NCBI GenBank assembly: GCA_030524925.1
Contig: JAUNFS010000006.1
Coordinates: 1 to 42,852, forward strand
DNA from: a bacterium
GTDB lineage: Bacteria > Bacillota_I > Bacilli_A > RF39 > UBA660
Length of the DNA: 42,852 nt
Direction of reading: 5' to 3'
Of the stretch, positions 5,838-35,041 are shown one piece after another. The notes beneath the pieces are model-generated. The model was not told where the DNA came from. It saw only the letters and a list, made by a program, of their open reading frames with translations, and made no database searches. Both the position numbers and the translations under genes were made by a program. How positions within the stretch are numbered: position 1 is the first letter of the stretch; each line of letters begins with the position of its first letter.

Positions 5838-7304
5838 GTGAAAAAATATTTATTATTTGCATTTTTATTGTTACTTCCTTGCAAGGTTTTGGCTTTTGCA
5901 TTTGATTGTCCTAGTTCAGTAACTAGTGGAGAAGAGATAAGATGCACAATTATACCGGGAGATAACCTAAATAAAATAAATGGTAATGTTGGATTTGATG
6001 ATGCGTTAGTTTTTTATGGAATATCAGGTAGCGGATTTACAAATGTAAGTAGTGGAACAAGCGTTACTTTAAATAGTGTTAAAACAAATGCAGAGATTTA
6101 TTTGAAATTTAAAGCACCAAGTGTTACTACAAAAAAAGAGTATGCGATAACATTTACAAATTTTTCGTATGTTACTGGAGATAATCGGACAAATCTTTAT
6201 GAAGCAAAATTATTTAAAGTAAATGTTGTTCCTAAGACAACAACCACAACTACAACAAAAGCAAGCGTTTTTAAAATCACTTTTGATGCTAATGGTGGAA
6301 CTGGGACTTTTAATGAATTATCTTGTACTAGCAAAAATGGAGTTTGTAATGTTGATTTAAGTAGTGTAGGAGTTCCTGTTAAAGATGGTTTTACATTTAA
6401 TGGCTGGGGAACTGTTAGAAGTTGTACTACTTCTGGGAATAAGAATGTTTATAAGGCTAAAAAGAGTACGACTTTATATGCTTGTTATACAAAAAATGGT
6501 GATACAACTACAACGACCACGACTACAAAAGTAACAACTACTACTAAGACAACGTCTACGACTACAGCTAAGACTGATATAAAATTATATTTAAAAGATT
6601 TAAGTGTTGAAGGTCAAAATATTGATTTTAGTAAGTTTAAAACAAATTATGAAATTAAGGTTTTATATGAGGTTGAAAGTATTAAAATTAATGCTGAAGC
6701 AGCTAGCGAGGGTATAAATACTGATTATCAAAATGAAGTAAATTTAGAAGTTGGTGAAAATGAAATCCCAATTACGCTTAGTGATGGGACGACTTCATCA
6801 GTTTATACTTTAAAGGTAATAAGGCTTAAAGAAGGCGAAGAAATTAAAGATGCTTCTAATGATGCTACTTTAAAGTCTTTAGTACTTACTGGTTATAATA
6901 TTGGATTTAATTCTACAGTAACAAGTTATGAACTAACTGTTAAATATAACGTTAGCAATATTGAGGTAAAAGCTACACCTAATGATGAGAATGCTAAGTT
7001 TGTTATTACTGGTAATAGTGATATTGCAAATGGAAGTGTTATAAAAGTTGATGTGCAGGCTGAAGATGGAACACTTATGTCTTACAAAATAAATATTGTA
7101 AAGCAAAACTTTTTTCAGACTTATAAAAATTATTTTTTAATGGGTGCAGGAGCGGTATTACTTATTTTAATAATTTTAATTATTGTTGATAAGAAGAAAA
7201 AAGTAAAAAAAATACCGAAAACTACTGTTGTAAAGAAATCAAGTAATATTAAATCTAGTGGTTCTAGCAATAAATCAAATGGAGTTGAAGTTTTAAAGAT
7301 GTAA
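5838..7304 (+). CDS. Membrane-anchored surface protein with an InlB B-repeat-like domain, cadherin-like beta-sandwich domains and Thr-rich linkers
   Basis: Signal peptide, ITFDANGG...GFTFNGW repeat, SNDATLKSL...VQAEDG cadherin-like motif, C-terminal TM with a basic tail. Confidence 0.75.
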   Translation: MKKYLLFAFLLLLPCKVLAFAFDCPSSVTSGEEIRCTIIPGDNLNKINGNVGFDDALVFYGISGSGFTNVSSGTSVTLNSVKTNAEIYLKFKAPSVTTKKEYAITFTNFSYVTGDNRTNLYEAKLFKVNVVPKTTTTTTTKASVFKITFDANGGTGTFNELSCTSKNGVCNVDLSSVGVPVKDGFTFNGWGTVRSCTTSGNKNVYKAKKSTTLYACYTKNGDTTTTTTTTKVTTTTKTTSTTTAKTDIKLYLKDLSVEGQNIDFSKFKTNYEIKVLYEVESIKINAEAASEGINTDYQNEVNLEVGENEIPITLSDGTTSSVYTLKVIRLKEGEEIKDASNDATLKSLVLTGYNIGFNSTVTSYELTVKYNVSNIEVKATPNDENAKFVITGNSDIANGSVIKVDVQAEDGTLMSYKINIVKQNFFQTYKNYFLMGAGAVLLILIILIIVDKKKKVKKIPKTTVVKKSSNIKSSGSSNKSNGVEVLKM

Positions 7305-7309
7305 TGTTT

Positions 7310-7333
7310 GAAAGATGAGAAATCATCTTTTTT
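7310..7333 (+). terminator. Intrinsic terminator
   Basis: AAAGATGA-GAAA-TCATCTTT followed by Ts. Confidence 0.75.
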
Positions 7334-7426
7334 GTATGGTAAAAAATAATATTTGAGCTGTCCTATTTTTGACAAAGTGAAAAATTTCTAGAAGCAACTT
7401 CTCGTCAGAGTTTTCCACACTCCTAG

Positions 7427-7454
7427 TTGACACGGGGGGGGGTTGTTATATAAT
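7427..7454 (+). promoter_or_regulatory. Consensus SigA promoter with a G9 tract in a 16-bp spacer
   Basis: TTGACA (7427-7432), G9 (7434-7442), TATAAT (7449-7454). Confidence 0.85.
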
Positions 7455-7477
7455 AAAAGAAGAAAATAGGTGGTAGA

Positions 7478-9712
7478 GTGATAAAAAAATATAGGAAACG
7501 CATACTAATTCTGGCGTGTTTGCTACTGATAACCGTGCTTCTAGCCGGGGTATCTTATGCTGTGTTTAATAGTTATGCATCTCAAAATAGTACTAATACA
7601 TTAGCGGCAACTTGTATAGAACTAGAATTTAGTGGAGAAGATTCAGTTAATTTAATAAATGTATATCCAATAAGTGATAGTGAGGGATTAAAAACTACGC
7701 CATATAAATTTAAAATAAAAAACAAGTGTAAGAACTATTTAGAATATATGGTGATAGCTTCAGCAATAAATATTACTAATCCCTTAGATTCAAAATATGT
7801 AAAAGTAAATTTAAGTGGAGATAATGAAATGGAACCAGTGTCACTATCATCATTAAAATCTATCCAAACACCATCTTCATTATCAGGTTATAGTATTAAG
7901 GAAAATTATGTATTGAAAGATAATGATGGAATACTAAAAGATGAAGAGAGAAACTTTGAATTTAGAATGTGGTTAGATGGAGAAAATGAAGAGACTTGGA
8001 CAAGTGAACAGGTAGAAAGTAAAAACTATCAAGTAAAAATATCTGTAATTGGTACAGTAAAAATTGAACCAAAGAGTGATATATATATAGCAGCTTTAAT
8101 AGATGGAGAGGAAAGTCTTACATTTCCAACAACAGCCGATTATATGGCAAAAGTAAACTGTACTAGAGGCGGTAAAAAGGTAGATACAAATGCGAGTATA
8201 AAGTGGACAGGTGCAAGATGGGCACTAACTACAACTATTACTGATGGTAATACTAGGTGTAATGTTTCTTTTGTTGCGGAACCGGCTCCAGATGGTTGGT
8301 ATGCTGCTGAAGATGGGACACTACTTGCGGCAATAAAAAGCGATAATGAATTAGAGCCAACTATAACAACGCCAGGGACAGCGACAAGTTATAGCTTAGC
8401 AGATAAAATACCAGATTGGATATTTAATGTGGATGCATATTATACATATGGAGATACATATAAAGTGAATAGTGATGGGACGTATACTATTGAAAATCCA
8501 AAGAAGATAAAATATAGTGATGAATTAAGTATTTTAAAGGGAAAGTATATGGTTAGTTCACAAGATAATTATTCAGATGCTTTTTCTTCTAATGATGAAT
8601 TACTTGATACCACAAATAAGAAACAATTACTGTTGATTAGAGATACGGCTAGTGATGGTTTTACGTATAGTAAAATATCTGGTGGAATGAAAACTTTTCC
8701 TAAAGAAACTGAAGCAGTAATGGCTACTACGGCAGATGATTATGGGACTTCATATTACTTTAGAGGTGCTGTTGAAAATAATTATATAGAGTTTGCTAAT
8801 AAGTGCTGGAGAATAGTAAGAGTAACCGGTAATGGTTCAATAAAACTGGCACTATTTAATAATAATGCGAATAGTAGTACTAATCCATGTGCGGAAGTTA
8901 ATGATAGTAAAGAGGCTGCTACTGTGGGGTCAAGTATGTTTAATTATGCTCATGGTGATAATGCTTTTGTTGGATTTATGTATGGAAATGCTGGTTGTTC
9001 TAATGGAACCTCAATTAATAAAAATGAATGTACCAGTGCTGGAGGCACGTGGAACGCTTCAACGTCATATGCAAATGCGCAGGCCAATGTTAATAAAAGT
9101 ACAATATTAAAGTATTTAGAAGAGTGGTATAATAATAATTTAGCTAGTTATGATAGTTATATAGCAGATACTATATGGTGTAATGATAAGAGTACAGTAA
9201 AAGATACGTCATTTAATCCATGGGGATGGACGCTAGGAACGAATTATGGATATGGGTTTAATTCAAATTATTATAGTGCTAATAAAAGATTGCTGCAGAA
9301 TGATGAGTATGGGTTAATGCTTGCTGGTAATCCATCGCTAATTTGTCCAAATGATAATAATGGAGGAAAGTTATCTAAGTTTACAGTAAGCGATACCACT
9401 AATGGCAATGGAAATTTAGATAAAAAGATTGGATTACTTACTGCTGATGAAGTAGTGTTTGCGGGAGGTGGTGAGGTAAATTACAGCTTTTATTTAATAA
9501 AAAATACTTATACGTGGTGGTGGACTATGTCTCCTGGTGATCTAGGAAATGTTGGAACTAGTATGTGGGGAGTAAGTGGCGACCACAGTATTGTTGGTAT
9601 TTATCTTACTATACGAAGCAGAGCTGTAAGGCCATCAATATCACTAGTTTCTACAGTGCGAGTCACATCGGGAAATGGAACTAGAAATAATCCTTATAAA
9701 ATAACTGTATAA
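7478..9712 (+). CDS. Exported or N-anchored surface protein with a C-terminal WWxxSP...VRP (CLec-like) domain; paralog of the 40990 gene
   Basis: N-terminal hydrophobic helix ending SYA, YYFRG...WRIVR, IGLLTADE, WWTMSP...AVRPSISL...GNGTxxNPY. Confidence 0.8.
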   Translation: MIKKYRKRILILACLLLITVLLAGVSYAVFNSYASQNSTNTLAATCIELEFSGEDSVNLINVYPISDSEGLKTTPYKFKIKNKCKNYLEYMVIASAINITNPLDSKYVKVNLSGDNEMEPVSLSSLKSIQTPSSLSGYSIKENYVLKDNDGILKDEERNFEFRMWLDGENEETWTSEQVESKNYQVKISVIGTVKIEPKSDIYIAALIDGEESLTFPTTADYMAKVNCTRGGKKVDTNASIKWTGARWALTTTITDGNTRCNVSFVAEPAPDGWYAAEDGTLLAAIKSDNELEPTITTPGTATSYSLADKIPDWIFNVDAYYTYGDTYKVNSDGTYTIENPKKIKYSDELSILKGKYMVSSQDNYSDAFSSNDELLDTTNKKQLLLIRDTASDGFTYSKISGGMKTFPKETEAVMATTADDYGTSYYFRGAVENNYIEFANKCWRIVRVTGNGSIKLALFNNNANSSTNPCAEVNDSKEAATVGSSMFNYAHGDNAFVGFMYGNAGCSNGTSINKNECTSAGGTWNASTSYANAQANVNKSTILKYLEEWYNNNLASYDSYIADTIWCNDKSTVKDTSFNPWGWTLGTNYGYGFNSNYYSANKRLLQNDEYGLMLAGNPSLICPNDNNGGKLSKFTVSDTTNGNGNLDKKIGLLTADEVVFAGGGEVNYSFYLIKNTYTWWWTMSPGDLGNVGTSMWGVSGDHSIVGIYLTIRSRAVRPSISLVSTVRVTSGNGTRNNPYKITV

Positions 9713-9784
9713 TTTATGAGTAAAATGTAATAACTTTACATTTTTTCTTTTTTTTGTTAAGATTTTTTTAGGAGTGATGCGGGG

Positions 9785-10552
9785 ATGGGAAGAAAATATT
9801 TTTTAGCGTATTATGCTGATAATGAGAATTATGTTGCAATAGATTTAAAGAAACTTCCTTATTTTAGTGGAAGGAATGCTGGTAATGCTTATGATATTAT
9901 TAGTTTTTATAATGAGTTTGATGATCAGCAAGATTTGTTTCTTTATTTAAGACAAAAGGGGTTAATTCCAAGAAATACGGAGGAAATATGTTTGTGTATG
10001 CAGCAAAAGAATCAAAATGGAAGTACGACTTTGAAAGCTTTGCCACATAGCGAAGAACCTTTAGTAAAATCTAGTTCTAAATTTTTTAGAAAAGATTATC
10101 TTATTGATTATTTAAGAAAAAATTTATTAGATAATAAATTTGTGGATGCTGTAAGAAGAGAGTTTGGTTTTTATCGTATTTATGAGTATGACGGAATTAG
10201 TTTAGAGTCTTGCTTAAATAATATTGTTTATTTTAATAATTTAAAAAAGGGGCATAATTTGGATAATGCTAGTGCAACAGAATTAGAACATAAAATTGAT
10301 ATGGTTGTAGTTGGTTTGACTAACGGGGTAAAAACATTTATTACTACGGCACTATTTTGTAATTATTATGCTGGGTTAGGAAAGCATGGACCAGTTAGTA
10401 AAGATGAAGTACGGGATGTAAGTTATGATAGTGAAGAGTTTTTGGAGTTAAATGATATAGTAAAGTATAATGTAGGTTTATCTGGTAAGGCGTTAGAAGA
10501 AGCTTTAGAAGATGAAGAACTTGCAAGTGAAAAGGTATCTAAGAAATTTTAG
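9785..10552 (+). CDS. Hypothetical protein
   Basis: 255 aa ORF with RBS; no recognised motif. Confidence 0.7.
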   Translation: MGRKYFLAYYADNENYVAIDLKKLPYFSGRNAGNAYDIISFYNEFDDQQDLFLYLRQKGLIPRNTEEICLCMQQKNQNGSTTLKALPHSEEPLVKSSSKFFRKDYLIDYLRKNLLDNKFVDAVRREFGFYRIYEYDGISLESCLNNIVYFNNLKKGHNLDNASATELEHKIDMVVVGLTNGVKTFITTALFCNYYAGLGKHGPVSKDEVRDVSYDSEEFLELNDIVKYNVGLSGKALEEALEDEELASEKVSKKF

Positions 10553-10611
10553 ATATTTTTTTATTGAACAATTTTTTCTTTATATTGTATAATTTAAGTG
10601 GTAGTGATGAT

Positions 10612-11502
10612 ATGAAAGATAATATTAATAAATTTTTAGATTATATTGCTTATGAGAGAAAATATTCGGATAAAACTGTTAGAAGTTATGAAAATGATTT
10701 ATATAAGTTAGAAAATTTTTTAAACAAAAAGAAACTTAATTATTTACATTTAGAATATGAAAATGTTAGTGAGTTTTTGATGTTTTTGCAAAAGAGTGGG
10801 TATAAGAGTGGGTCAATAAATAGAATGATTAGTGCATCAAGGTCTTTTTATAATTATTTGATGCTTTCTGATATAGTAAATGATAATCCTTTTATGTTAG
10901 TTTCTAATTTAAAAAGAGAAAAGATGCTTCCTACATATTTTACTTATAATGATTTTGAGAAGATGTTAGATAGTGTTACTTTGGATGATGAATTAAGTGT
11001 AAGAAATAGATTAATTTTAGAACTACTACTAGCGACAGGAACAAGAGTTAGCGAACTTGCAAATATTAAGATTAGTGATATAGATTTTAAAAATAATGAA
11101 ATTAAGATTTTTGGTAAGGGTAGTAAAGAACGAGTGGTATTTTTTGGAAATCACGCTAGAGAAAAGATGTATTATTATTTAAAAGATGCTAGGCCAAAGC
11201 TTTTAAATGGGAAGTTTAGTGAGTTTTTATTTATAAATGATAAGGGAGGAAGACTTACTGATAGAGGGGTAAGATTTATTATTGATAATATAATGAAGAA
11301 ATGTCAGTTAAAAGTAAAGGTTACTCCACATGTTTTTCGTCATACTTTTGCGACGATGCTTTTAAATGAGGGATGTGACGTTAGAAGTGTCCAGGAGCTA
11401 CTTGGACATGAAAATTTAGGTACTACAAGTATATACACTCATTTGACTAATGAAACTATTAGAAAGACATATTTAAATGCACATCCTCATGGAAAACGCT
11501 AG
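10612..11502 (+). CDS. xerC: XerC/XerD-family tyrosine recombinase (ATG 10612 preferred over 10564)
   Basis: TGTRVSEL, GKGSKER, TPHVFRHTFAT, VQELLGH, TTSIYTH catalytic set and an N-terminal SAM-like domain. Confidence 0.85.
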   Translation: MKDNINKFLDYIAYERKYSDKTVRSYENDLYKLENFLNKKKLNYLHLEYENVSEFLMFLQKSGYKSGSINRMISASRSFYNYLMLSDIVNDNPFMLVSNLKREKMLPTYFTYNDFEKMLDSVTLDDELSVRNRLILELLLATGTRVSELANIKISDIDFKNNEIKIFGKGSKERVVFFGNHAREKMYYYLKDARPKLLNGKFSEFLFINDKGGRLTDRGVRFIIDNIMKKCQLKVKVTPHVFRHTFATMLLNEGCDVRSVQELLGHENLGTTSIYTHLTNETIRKTYLNAHPHGKR

Positions 11503-15779: not shown

Positions 15780-16376
15780 ATGAAAAAAATAGTGTTTAAT
15801 GTTGGAATAATTTTAGCAATATTTGTACTTACTGGTTGTAGTAAAAATGGAGATTACGAATCATTATCAGAAAATGTTAAAAGATTAGAACTAACAGGGA
15901 ATTTAGTTACATATGAAGCCTATTATCATAATGTGCTTGAGTTTGAAAAAGAAGCAGGTAAAGGAATAACGCACGTTTTTGAAAAAGATAGAAAATTATT
16001 TGCAGAATATACTGGAACAATAAAGTTAGGAATTGATTTAAATAAAGTAAAAATTGAAATTAATGGTAAAGAAATAAATGTAAAAATACCTGCAGCAAAA
16101 ATAATTGGACAACCTAATGTGGATAAAGATGATTTTAAAAAAGAAAAATTTATTGAGTCTGAAGAAGGTTTTATTAATAAAAATCGAATAAATGGCGATG
16201 ATATATCAAAAGCTTTTGATGATGCTCAAGCTGCAATGAAAAAATATGCTGAAGATGATGAAGAGTTGCTTGCGATTGCGCAAAAGAGAGCTAAAATTAT
16301 TATTGAAGAAAACATAAATCAATTTAGTGGTATGAAACCCTCTGATTATACTATTAATTGGGAATATGAATCATAA
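15780..16376 (+). CDS. DUF4230-like lipoprotein
   Basis: Lipobox LTGC, YTGTIKLGIDL...VKIPAAKI, AQKRAK. Confidence 0.75.
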   Translation: MKKIVFNVGIILAIFVLTGCSKNGDYESLSENVKRLELTGNLVTYEAYYHNVLEFEKEAGKGITHVFEKDRKLFAEYTGTIKLGIDLNKVKIEINGKEINVKIPAAKIIGQPNVDKDDFKKEKFIESEEGFINKNRINGDDISKAFDDAQAAMKKYAEDDEELLAIAQKRAKIIIEENINQFSGMKPSDYTINWEYES

Positions 16377-16482
16377 CGTTGAAGTTTTCTTTTGCTTTTT
16401 GATAGATTTTGATATATATGAAAAGATTATCAGAATAGTATAGTATAAATTATAATTGAATATACTAATAATGGTATACTAA

Positions 16483-16511
16483 TTGACATTTTTATAAAAA
16501 TATAGTATATT
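16483..16511 (+). promoter_or_regulatory. SigA promoter upstream of the repeat RNA
   Basis: TTGACA-17 bp-TATATT. Confidence 0.75.
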
Positions 16512-16534
16512 TATTTTGCACTGAAAAGTGTGAA

Positions 16535-16632
16535 AATGTTTTTCGCTTCTGGATGGTGCGAATAATAAATGATTCCAGGCGACAATGTTTTTCGCTTCCA
16601 GGTGGCGCGACTAATAAATGATCCTGGTTGAA
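16535..16632 (+). ncRNA. Two tandem 49-nt pseudoknot repeats; putative type III TA antitoxin RNA (CptI-like)
   Basis: Copies at 16535-16583 and 16584-16632. TCGC/GCGA stem interleaved with CTGGA/TCCAG (copy 1) or CCAGG/CCTGG (copy 2), with an A-rich TAATAAATG loop. Confidence 0.8.
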
Positions 16633-16642
16633 AATATAAAAT

Positions 16643-16680
16643 AACTTCATCAAACGGTGGAGTTTTCTTTTCTTTTATTT
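16643..16680 (+). terminator. Intrinsic terminator after the repeats
   Basis: AACTTCATC-AAAC-GGTGGAGTT followed by a long T-rich tract. Confidence 0.75.
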
Positions 16681-16707
16681 TATGCATAGATTATGCATTG
16701 AGATGAT

Positions 16708-16829
16708 ATGATACACATTGAAATTTATATTATATTAAAGATGAATATTTTGATGTCGTAGACGATGATAGTTTAAAAAAGAAAATGTTAGATGAAATAA
16801 AAGTAAGTTATTTAGTTCTTATTTGCTAA
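16708..16829 (+). pseudogene. Frameshifted, truncated type III toxin (CptN/ToxN-like) N-terminal fragment
   Basis: ATG at 16708 is out of frame with NLYYIKDEYFDVVDDDSLK, which resembles the YxIKDEYF N-terminus of type III toxins. Position is right after the repeat terminator. Stop at 16827-16829. Confidence 0.6.
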
Positions 16830-16849
16830 ACTTTAAAAAGAGCAGTTTA

Positions 16850-18015
16850 TTAATTGCTCTTTTTGAATATTTCAAATTTTTTAGTTTGAATAAGTGAATA
16901 GATATATTTATATGTGCCTGAAACTAATTGACCGATATATGTGCAAAAACCTGTTGGTAAAAATGAACATAATAATCTTAAAATTCTACAAGTTATATAT
17001 GATATGTTGTGTTTTTGATTGTTATCTTTTATTTGTAAATAATTCCATTTGATTATAGCCGGTACATTTAAAACCATGTCTATAATTTGGATTATAAATA
17101 TTATAATATAAATCTTTAAATCTGGTTTATAGAACCAATATAAACTGATATTCATCATTATAATAGATATCAAAAGAAGACCTAATAATTTGTATGCGTC
17201 TTTTAAAGATTTTTTGTAATTAAAATTATCTTTAGAAATATCAATTTTGGATACAGTACTAATGCTGGATAACATATCCCATTGGGTGTCAGATGTTAAA
17301 CTATCAAAATTTATAGCTGTTAAATATTTTGTTCCATAAGATACACTGTTTTGAATGCCAGTTAAATAAATAAGTAACATTCCAAAATTACCAATAATAT
17401 TGAAAGAAACATTTTTTATATTCTTCTTAAACATTAAATTTGGCTTAACAAGCTTAACATTTTTACAATAATAATAGGCGATTAGAATGGCGTCTATTAG
17501 GATAGTTAATATAACTGATAAACAGTTTTTAATTATTAATGATAGTATTACAATACAACTTAGATTTGTTATATTAAAACATGTATTCATTTTGTTTGAT
17601 AAAGTGTTTTTATTTTCATAATAAAGTTTTTGCGATATAAGTTGCATTAAGAATCCGAAAAACATAAGAAATACTGAGTATATAGCGTAATAGTGATAGA
17701 CGCTTGTTTCTAAATTAAAAAATAATAAATATTTATCAATGTTTATAGTTAATATAATAGTAATTAAAAGTACAAGGACAGTTCCAAAAAGCATATTGGA
17801 ATATACAATGTTTTTAATATTATTTTTACTATCAGTTATGTTTGGACCTACAGAAAATATCTCCGTAAAGATCATATAAAAAATTGTAAGGGGTAAGTTA
17901 TTATTAGGACGTTAGATATTTCTTTATTAATTATTAAACCTAAAGCTATCCATATTATAATGGGACATATAGATGTTAGGAAAATGTCTAAACTTATTTG
18001 TAAGAGTCTTTTCAT
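16850..18015 (-). pseudogene. Polytopic membrane protein (MATE/flippase-like) split by a 1-nt frameshift
   Basis: ORF from ATG 18015 (MKRLLQ...YPLQFF) and ORF 17875..16850 join in frame if the T6 run at 17878-17883 gains one base. Many TM segments. Confidence 0.65.
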
Positions 18016-34032: not shown

Positions 34033-34626
34033 ATGAAAATTGATAGTTCAAATTTAAGTACAATTGCGGTTAGAACAAGTCAGTATCCTACTGATAATAA
34101 GCCAGAATTTTTACTTGTTGGTAGAAGTAATGTTGGTAAAAGTAGTTTTATTAATACACTTTTGGGAAGAAAGAATTATGCTAAAACCAGTGCAACACCT
34201 GGTAAAACTCAAACTTTAAATTTTTATATTTGTAATGATGAATTTTATTTAGTAGATGTACCAGGTTATGGATATGCTAATACAGATAAAAGTACGCAGA
34301 AGAAACTTGGATTAATGATAGAAGATTATTTAAAAACTAGAACTAATTTGGTGAGAGTTTTTATGTTAGTTGATGGTAGAATGAAACCTACAGAAAATGA
34401 TGTTTTGATGTATAATTATTTAAAGTATTATAATGTACCAACAACTGTTGTTGCTACTAAATATGATAAATTAAAAGCTAAGGATAGGGATAAGAATATT
34501 AAAAATGTTTCGTTAGTACTCAATTTAAATGATGATGATAAGGTTGTAGCTTTTTCTAATGTTACTAAAAAGGGTAAAGAAGAGGTTTTAAATATTATTT
34601 TAGAAGGGCTTAATAATGAAGAATAA
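34033..34626 (+). CDS. engB: Ribosome biogenesis GTPase YsxC/EngB
   Basis: GRSNVGKSS, TPGKTQ, DVPGYGY, TKYDK. Confidence 0.95.
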   Translation: MKIDSSNLSTIAVRTSQYPTDNKPEFLLVGRSNVGKSSFINTLLGRKNYAKTSATPGKTQTLNFYICNDEFYLVDVPGYGYANTDKSTQKKLGLMIEDYLKTRTNLVRVFMLVDGRMKPTENDVLMYNYLKYYNVPTTVVATKYDKLKAKDRDKNIKNVSLVLNLNDDDKVVAFSNVTKKGKEEVLNIILEGLNNEE

Positions 34627-35041
34627 AAAAGGGTTTACGCTAGTTGAACTTCTAGCAGTTATTTCAGTTTTAGCGATTGTAATGGTTATAGTTATTCCGG
34701 CAGTAAGTAATAATAGTAAGACTGCAAAAGAAGGAATTTTAAAAACTAAATTAGATTTAATTGTGGATCAATCTATTATATGGGGGCAAGATCATATTAA
34801 CTATTTTGTAAATGAATCTGAACCACTGGAAGAGTGCACGACTAGTGATGATTTGGTTAGCTGCAAGATTAGTTTTGGTGCTTTAGCTAAAGAAGGGTAT
34901 GTAAAGTACGATGAAGGTGAAATAATAAGTGATCCAACTAAAAGAAGAGATAATTTAAATAATGAAAAAATAGATATTGTTTATGATAAGAAGAAAAATG
35001 ATGTAAGTGCTACTTATGATAGTAGTCATTTGTTTGATTAA
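34616..35041 (+). CDS. Type IV prepilin-like protein
   Basis: KKGFTLVELLAVI class III signal. Confidence 0.85.
   Translation: MKNKKGFTLVELLAVISVLAIVMVIVIPAVSNNSKTAKEGILKTKLDLIVDQSIIWGQDHINYFVNESEPLEECTTSDDLVSCKISFGALAKEGYVKYDEGEIISDPTKRRDNLNNEKIDIVYDKKKNDVSATYDSSHLFD

Follow-up and report, generated by a model that had tools for sequence, protein, structure and literature searches.

The contig JAUNFS010000006.1 of the GenBank assembly GCA_030524925.1 (GTDB lineage Bacillota_I; Bacilli_A; RF39; UBA660) was analysed over its 42,852 nucleotides, referred to below as the window, and two of its genes, located at positions 7478-9712 (gene 1) and from 40990 to the end (gene 2), are the subject of this study. 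We consider it likely that both belong to a family of secreted, modular, lectin-like proteins that is varied by a diversity-generating retroelement (DGR), by a poly-G promoter and by recombination, and that gene 1 represents a member of this family that is not a target of the DGR and is under poly-G control. The window is the entire contig C16 of an assembly composed of 38 contigs (905,118 nt, 85% complete, approximately 29% GC), and the other contigs are designated below in the same way. The coordinates of the features are collected in Table 1.

Gene 1 and gene 2 are collinear paralogs separated by 33.5 kb. With gene 1 as query against the genome, tblastn gave identities to gene 2 of 55% over the amino acids 3-306 and of 51% over the amino acids 411-733, in agreement with a preliminary description made from the nucleotide sequence, which had presented the two genes as collinear paralogs 33 kb apart. 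The identity differs between modules (68% in N1, 40% in N2, 63% in C1 and 37% in the last module) and the sharpest divergence is observed in the final 117 nt, so that the concentration of the divergence in the segment WxxSP...VRP, which had also been proposed, is borne out. The extra segment attributed to gene 1 exists as an insert, with a size of 104 amino acids and bounds of 8396-8707 in place of about 106 amino acids at 8390-8707. The longest exact word common to the two genes is the identical block of 32 nt reported earlier (9344-9375 = 42505-42536). In gene 2, the frequency of C at codon position 3 is 0.51 and the GC content is 0.61 between 42694 and 42810, against 0.04 and 0.34 in the remainder of the gene. 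The corresponding values for the positions 9518-9634 of gene 1 are 0.10 and 0.44, against 0.04 and 0.33 in its remainder, and gene 1 therefore lacks the strong NNC bias, as had been noticed. The bias of gene 2 is not due to chance; it mirrors the AAC-rich template repeat (TR) present on the contig C25.

A six-frame search detected at least 29 open reading frames (ORFs) of the family on 17 contigs, which together cover 51,117 nt (5.65%) of the assembly; the multi-copy repertoire that had been predicted is thus real. Many of these ORFs sit at contig ends; because the assembly breaks at the repeats of the family, the copy number is a lower bound. The positions 1-57 of C25, just upstream of the TR, encode the final 19 residues of an additional paralog, and the contigs C16 and C7 share the terminal sequence ..GVRPSLSLSSGVKISAGD. 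The C-terminal domain of gene 1 was matched in 18 of the 23 other genomes of the genus, 14 of them with 10-54 matches, and in none of 17 genomes of other genera; on the basis of these matches, the family is restricted to the genus. Of the 8000 candidates scored in a large protein collection, 6840 are homologs of gene 1, and no named homolog appears among the 120 matches listed. The protein cluster of gene 1 has a single member.

Only one reverse transcriptase (RT) was found in the assembly (C25:1447-2544; RVT_1, 56 bits for a cut-off of 29.6). Its frame is open over 366 amino acids and contains IGNMTSQ and YMDD, and its counterpart in a sister genome shares 96% identity with it. The SQ motif is a mark of the RTs of DGRs. 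The locus is arranged in the order TR, MutS-like gene, Avd-like gene and RT, followed by two tandem paralogs of which only the second possesses a TR-like variable region (VR). The Avd-like ORF, just upstream of the RT gene, gave weak matches with PF22296 (bAvd; E-value 6.7e-5, 23.8 bits for a cut-off of 40) and with NF033474 (27.4 bits for a cut-off of 80), and the small MutS-like ORF weakly matched MutS_I, with an E-value of 2.7e-6. The TR (C25:392-508) is AAC-rich and non-coding, reads WWALSPNDFNGNNANVW..NNNNGVRP and contains 34 adenines and 12 AAC codons. AAC-rich repeats homologous to it precede the RT gene by about 1 kb in each of the 12 RT loci retrieved from the genus, which indicates that the pairing of the DGR with the family is old. 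A GC-rich hairpin (GTGGCAACTGCT..AGCAGTTGCCAC; C25:185-245), situated between the stop codon of the upstream paralog and the TR, may be a terminator or an RNA element of the DGR. The Rfam search returned a single tRNA in the window and no match at the DGR locus.

The TR was aligned to the equivalent stretch of all 29 paralogs and the mismatches were separated into those at adenines of the TR (A) and those at other positions (non-A). Gene 2 differs from the TR at 21 of 34 A positions and at 7 of 83 non-A positions in the core of 117 nt (23/36 and 8/89 in the wider alignment; Fisher p = 8e-10). The lowest non-A count was obtained for C18:25887-27551 (A 19/34, non-A 1/84); the copy at the end of C7 displays A 26/36 and non-A 5/89, C20:12647-14665 displays A 22/34 and non-A 8/84, and six more VR-like copies extend up to 16/85 non-A mismatches (A 26/34 for the last one). 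With a limit of our own set at less than 20% of non-A mismatches, 10 copies are considered as VR-bearing, and with a limit of 10% or less, four. The remaining paralogs have no relation to the TR. Gene 1 is among these, with A 22/34 and non-A 38/83 in the core (18/37 and 41/99 in the wider alignment); as it fails the adenine pattern, gene 1 is not, by this measure, a current target of the DGR. The 10 VR copies share a GC-rich end, GGCGTGCGxCC followed by TCTCTATCACTT, with 0-4 changes in 11 nt, and their Arg codon at the 3' end of the VR is CGN, where most non-targets use AGA or AGG. At this place gene 1 reads GCTGTAAGGCC and the targets read GGCGTGCGTCC. We infer that GGCGTGCGTCC is a candidate initiation of mutagenic homing site (IMH), the point where mutagenic homing would start.

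The preliminary description had regarded one copy as a recent DGR target. The signature of a target is present in gene 2, while "recent" is uncertain because of the seven non-A mismatches. Two of these mismatches are identical to the letters of the TR of the sister genome, so that a part of this noise would result from drift of the TR after the last homing. Because the window ends with the contig, gene 2 is cut 42 nt after its VR.

The cassette that precedes gene 1 has the core TTGACAC-G9-TTGTTATATAAT, and the other cassettes display an ATG or GTG start codon at a similar distance after the ribosome-binding site (RBS). The length of the promoter spacer equals that of the G run plus seven, i.e. 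14 nt for G7, 16 nt for G9 and the canonical 17 nt for G10. Genes whose proteins share only 16-37% identity have cassettes that are about 90% identical. The source genome has no more than seven G or C runs of at least 7 nt. Six of these are included in the cassette upstream of members of the family, as G9 in three cases, as G7 in two and as a run truncated at a contig end in the last; in one further cassette, the seventh, the run is interrupted. Instances with identical flanks of 12 nt were counted in the source genome, in two sister genomes and in four metagenome contigs. The 14 distinct instances comprise G7 three times (one cut by a contig end), G8 once, G9 nine times and G10 once. Length polymorphism is also observed between near-orthologs, with a pair carrying G7 and G8 (91.8% identity over 1500 nt) and a pair carrying G9 and G10 (93.2% identity over 781 nt). 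Runs of at least nine G are present in 12 of 24 genomes of the genus, several of them just upstream of genes of the family according to a comparison of coordinates only. None of the 10 VR copies possesses the cassette, against 7 of the 19 other copies, and neither a G/C run of at least 5 nt nor an A/T run of at least 9 nt was found upstream of the VR copies. The contigs of one sequencing run (0.05 word share) that matched the positions 7300-9712 are family genes of relatives, the longest being of 680 nt with 68 differences; no indel at the poly-G run is listed among them, which is uninformative on the phase state. An inversion of the promoter was also considered and rejected: the product of the neighbouring recombinase gene (10564-11502) matches XerC/XerD with 313.6 and 291 bits, NF001399 exceeding its cut-off, and is read as a housekeeping Xer protein and not as an invertase, and no inverted repeats flank the promoter of gene 1 among the 25 longest of 174 pairs.

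Comparisons between paralogs show recombination among the modules of the family. The module N1 of gene 1 is 92% identical to that of the paralog on C26 and 33% or less to most others, and its insert and module C1 are respectively 75% and 76% identical to those of C20:12647-14665, the N1 of which is only 33% identical. Likewise, the N1 of gene 2 is 96% identical to that of C25:2548-4554, while the copies that resemble gene 2 in C1 (89% identity) either have an N1 of 26% identity or lack this module. The maximum chi-square values are comprised between 190 and 380 in four triplets, and none of 500 permutations reached them in any of the four. The breakpoints are located in or near the module N2 and the N2/C1 junction, close to 8288 in gene 1 and close to 41871 in gene 2, the latter just before the conserved block DDYGTSYYFRG. 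Gene conversion through conserved blocks had been proposed earlier; the mosaicism exists, and the block of 32 nt was rejected as the recombination site, as the mapped breakpoints lie elsewhere. Two copies only, a uniform divergence along the genes and a lack of mosaicism had been named as grounds against the earlier interpretation of the gene pair. All three were checked and none of them was found, and this interpretation is supported.

The searches of Pfam and NCBIfam with gene 1 returned nothing. The folds were compared by structure. The C-terminal 340 amino acids of gene 1 were modelled with a mean predicted local distance difference test score (pLDDT) of 86.9 and a predicted template-modelling score of 0.89. 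The best match is the chain 9qa6_A (residues 33-304; Z 13.1, 201 aligned residues, root-mean-square deviation (rmsd) 3.6, Foldseek E-value 3e-4), followed by the C-terminal domain of Lcl of Legionella (8q4e, Z 6.5), TvpA of Treponema (2y3c, Z 5.1) and many C-type-lectin-like domains (CTLDs) with Z values of 4-5. The domain thus models as an enlarged C-type lectin fold. The family DUF6273 (PF19789) matches 11 of 35 aligned homologs (best E-value 7.5e-13), and the paralog on C26, which is outside this alignment, carries a precomputed PF19789 match. Gene 1 itself has no PF19789 match at an E-value of 0.01 or better and was not assigned to DUF6273, since it is at most a distant relative. The insert, present in nine of the 29 paralogs (gene 1 and eight others), was modelled with a pLDDT of about 84-90 over most of its length. 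The N-terminal model is weaker (pLDDT 70.8). Its module N1 matches the TasA fibre subunit 8aur_A with a middling score (Z 7.8, rmsd 3.2, 129 aligned residues), an atlas gave a lead to the camelysin family (score 0.87), and PF12389 (TasA/camelysin) matches the N-terminus of the paralog C6:45863 (24.1 bits for a cut-off of 22.5); the PF12389 HMM (hidden Markov model) does not match gene 1. We take the N-terminal signal of gene 1 to resemble the SipW/TasA type. A lipoprotein signal conserved in the family was not found, the N-terminal Cys of gene 1 (..ILAC..) not being conserved in the alignment of paralogs. In gene 2, a DUF5979 match in N2 is weak (E-value 0.005, under the cut-off).

Elsewhere in the genome, the contig C34 (89-12143) contains two genes of SipW-type (archaeal-type) signal peptidase I, each with 77.9 bits and above the cut-off, adjoining several TasA/camelysin-like genes of 200-230 amino acids with the N-terminus ..GATFAYF... 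This cluster may provide the export and fibre machinery for the family of gene 1. In some distant homologs of the family, an N_methyl prepilin motif replaces the TasA-like signal.

Table 1. Positions of the features of gene 1, gene 2 and their surroundings in the window.
Feature	Position	Strand	Description
Promoter and 5'-untranslated region cassette	7409..7477	+	From AGTTTTCCACA.. via the core promoter to the RBS; common to 7 paralogs
Core promoter	7427..7454	+	-35 TTGACA 7427-7432, spacer of 16 nt, -10 TATAAT 7449-7454; 12/12 consensus
Poly-G tract G9	7434..7442	+	Inside the promoter spacer
RBS AGGTGG	7468..7473	+	4 nt ahead of the GTG start
Gene 1	7478..9712	+	744 aa, predicted modular secreted protein, not a current DGR target
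N-terminal signal or anchor of gene 1	7478..7564	+	Ends ..GVSYAVF
Module N1	7565..8062	+	aa 30-195, beta-sandwich; best fold match TasA fibre subunit
Module N2	8063..8395	+	aa 196-306, Ig-like beta domain; recombination breakpoint near 8288
Insert module	8396..8707	+	aa 307-410, small beta-rich domain; missing from gene 2
C-terminal domain	8708..9709	+	aa 411-744, enlarged C-type-lectin-like; distant DUF6273 relation
32-nt block	9344..9375	+	Codes for the most conserved motif of the family, ..CPNDNNGGKLS..
VR-equivalent segment of gene 1	9518..9634	+	39 codons as in the TR, no TR relation
Terminator-like AT-rich hairpin	9722..9756	+	Stem of 9 bp, 9722-9730 / 9736-9744, then T run
Promoter-like site of gene 2	40912..40940	+	TTGAAA, 17 nt, TATAAT; no repeat tract
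Gene 2	40990..42852	+	VR-bearing paralog; likely start ATG 40990 after GGAGG; protein on record starts at 40990
VR of gene 2	42694..42810	+	39 codons matching the TR at C25:392-508
GC-rich 3' end of the VR, candidate IMH	42799..42809	+	GGCGTGCGTCC, common to the TR, then VR-specific sequence

The mechanism that we propose on the basis of these data comprises three processes. The exported proteins would display a lectin-like tip on a stalk of beta domains and, once at the surface, may bind ligands. The single chromosomal DGR would rewrite, or would have rewritten, in trans the last 39 codons of about 10 paralogs including gene 2: a complementary DNA of the TR with random bases at adenines would replace these codons, with up to 34 adenines and 12 AAC codons made variable. 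In seven other paralogs, including gene 1, a slipped-strand change of the G run (from G7 to G10) would shift the spacer between 14 and 17 nt and turn transcription off or on. Finally, exchange at module borders would shuffle the N-terminal modules, the insert and the C-terminal modules, and so re-pair the parts.

Several observations weigh against this mechanism. Ongoing mutagenesis and ON/OFF switching are both deduced from the anatomy of the loci. This also applies to the earlier statement that the other copy is a non-target under promoter switching, in which the non-target status (38/83 non-A) and the G9 run in the promoter spacer stand and the switching is read from anatomy only. The pattern of gene 2 is not clean, with its seven exceptions at non-A positions, and gene 2 may for this reason no longer be rewritten; a single canonical VR, with one non-A mismatch, exists among the VR-like copies; and the matches of the Avd-like and MutS-like ORFs are under the curated cut-offs. 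The separation of the cassette and the VRs is not significant alone (Fisher p = 0.06), no more than 3 of 24 genomes of the genus contain the exact cassette, and the length regarded as "ON" is a guess, because G9 gives a spacer of 16 nt. The TasA-like reading of N1, for its part, rests on the Z value of 7.8 and on the HMM match of one paralog.

In an alternative reading, the DGR would be a relic, the VR-like segments being drifting fossils of past homing and gene 2 being no longer diversified. The graded series of non-A mismatches, from 1/84 to 16/85 with gene 2 at 7/83, is in line with such a history, as is the search for variant alleles of gene 2, which yielded none: its protein cluster is a singleton and its best match in the sister genome (G017) is 78-84% identical. 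However, the RT is open over its 366 amino acids, retains its catalytic motifs and is 96% identical in the sister genome, one VR has 19 A differences from the TR for only one non-A difference, and the frequency of C at codon position 3 in the VR of gene 2 is still 0.51 against 0.04 in the rest of the gene, a bias that AT pressure would erode. We therefore regard a relic as rather improbable. It is a little less probable still that the poly-G run is a fixed element of the promoter, or that its differences in length are noise of sequencing or assembly, with no phase switch. Homopolymers are indeed error-prone, G9 is present in nine of the 14 instances of the cassette, and an unrelated contig of a genome of the same genus (G013:C22:1-48) opens with a G run of 48 nt that is probably a sequencing artefact. 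Yet the runs of the cassettes are internal ones, occupy the same site in a promoter agreeing at 12 of 12 positions with the consensus and recur in independent assemblies; such G/C runs are otherwise nearly absent from a genome of 29% GC, and the interruption of the run in one cassette is what an instability of uninterrupted runs would predict.

The history of gene 1 leads to a further alternative, in which it was never a DGR target: its C-module would come from a non-target lineage, and its sister C20:12647-14665 would have gained the VR by recombination. The widespread mosaicism of the family and the 2-4 changes of VR status required on the tree of module C1 are compatible with this scenario, and the excess of differences of gene 1 at A positions (22/34 against 38/83) is expected of any hypervariable binding loop. 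Against it, gene 1 has the VR-bearing C20 copy as its sister on this tree with a support of 100/100, in a phylogeny where nine of the 10 VR copies make up a single clade (98/96), and the copy just upstream of the TR has the C-module type of gene 1 in both the source and the sister genome. In addition, the segment of gene 1 has the same 39 codons as the TR and a raised GC content (0.44 against 0.33), it retains the remnant GGCGACCACAG, which matches the TR at 10 of 11 letters, and about half of its non-A differences are changes of a third-position C to T or A. We consider a gene 1 that never was a target to be quite possible, short of an even chance. The VR-bearing sister, the common 39 codons, the raised GC content, the GGCGACCACAG remnant and the third-position changes lead us to prefer the reading that gene 1 is probably a decayed former target that is now under the poly-G switch.

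The proposed mechanism can be extended to a model of the "generate, then store" type, which we put forward as speculative and unlikely. The DGR would evolve new tips for binding in some of the paralogs, copies losing the GC-rich homing site would freeze and gain the mobile poly-G cassette by recombination, thereby being kept in an ON/OFF-switchable form, and shuffling would re-pair the tips with the stalks. If this model were true, hypermutation and a phase-variable archive would both operate on one gene family in a genome of about 1 Mb.

Concerning the neighbourhood of gene 1, the gene located upstream (5838-7304) encodes a surface-type protein with a signal peptide, a Listeria-Bacteroides repeat, Thr-rich linkers, a cadherin-like beta-sandwich domain and a C-terminal membrane anchor. 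The hairpin that follows gene 1 was missed by the terminator scan because its criteria require at least three G-C pairs. Between gene 1 and the XerC/D-like gene is found an ORF of 255 amino acids (9785-10552) without Pfam or NCBIfam match. Further in the window, a small gene (34616-35041) has a type IV pilin-like N-terminus (..KGFTLVELLAVI..), and the intergenic region 16376-16850 contains a tandem direct repeat of 49 nt (16532-16629; two copies, 78% identical) that has no Rfam match and whose predicted folding is not better than that of shuffled sequences (z -0.29).

Multi-target trans-acting DGRs with C-type lectin (CLec) targets, domain shuffling, accessories of the MutS-like (MSL) type and homopolymer promoters are already described. 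Among the closest systems is the DGR of Treponema denticola, which serves TvpA and seven remote paralogous targets and in which, according to the accessible part of its account (PMC5758913), a single chromosomal DGR also acts in trans on dispersed paralogs with VR domains of C-terminal C-type lectin fold. It differs from the present family, in which a genome of about 1 Mb contains about 10 VR-like copies among at least 29 paralogs, the CTLD is enlarged and related to DUF6273 and is not of the FGE type, no lipobox is conserved, MutS-like and Avd-like accessories are present and other paralogs have poly-G promoters. The same 2017 survey mentions, in the portion available, at most seven non-adjacent targets for one DGR (PMC5758913), and later surveys may hold larger cases. 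The MSL-type DGRs of Legionella pneumophila and of the Bacteroides pilus tip likewise possess a small MutS-domain-I protein beside avd and the RT, as far as the accessible text describes them (PMC5758913; 10.1101/2024.11.15.621889); here the host lineage and the target family are different and the order is TR, MSL, avd, RT and then two tandem paralogs. In Thiohalocapsa PB-PSB1, the available part of the report describes duplicated, domain-shuffled CLec targets, diversification in trans and an unequal activity of the VRs, as in the present family, but with nine DGR loci and intracellular sensors of conflict systems, in contrast to one DGR, secreted targets and simple-sequence-repeat promoters here (PMC10907252).

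In homopolymer promoter phase variation, as in the cassette of gene 1, a mononucleotide run between the -35 and -10 elements sets the spacer, and a cassette can be distributed across a multigene family of surface proteins. Examples are porA and opc of Neisseria and vlp of Mycoplasma hyorhinis. Compared with these systems, the present one belongs to another lineage, concerns proteins that are not lipoproteins and a family that is also served by a DGR, and is known from its sequence only. The literature listed under this heading includes PMC6389960 and PMC5084427. Structurally, the C-terminal domain of gene 1 is best matched (17% identity) by the N-terminal domain of the IgA peptidase of Thomasclavelia ramosa (9qa6), which the available text presents as a C-type-lectin-like core about twice as large as is usual (PMC12237041). 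In this peptidase it is an accessory domain of a metallopeptidase, dispensable for activity, and the same available text reports no link to a VR or a DGR (PMC12237041). The TasA/camelysin proteins (Peptidase_M73) of Bacillus subtilis, with SipW, have their counterparts here in the fold match of N1, in the PF12389 match of a paralog and in the SipW-type genes of C34; gene 1 departs from them by the lack of a PF12389 match, a middling Z value of 7.8 and a protein three times longer. Among the papers listed by full-text searches of the literature, none combines a DGR with a promoter of the repeat-tract type in a single gene family. The preliminary description had proposed an undescribed system; this holds for the combination of mechanisms and not for the single ones, and the novelty is confined to the combination because each mechanism is of a known kind.

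A reduced, uncultured bacterium thus devotes 5.65% of its assembly to one variable family of secreted lectin-like proteins. One genome appears to hold the whole life cycle of DGR targets, from a canonical VR through graded, drifting VRs to fully decayed copies, and the approximately 10 VRs that depend on one TR constitute a natural gradient for asking what makes a site competent for homing. The presence of a second, unrelated switch, the poly-G promoter, on the non-target copies makes testable a division of labour between hypermutation and phase variation within one repertoire.

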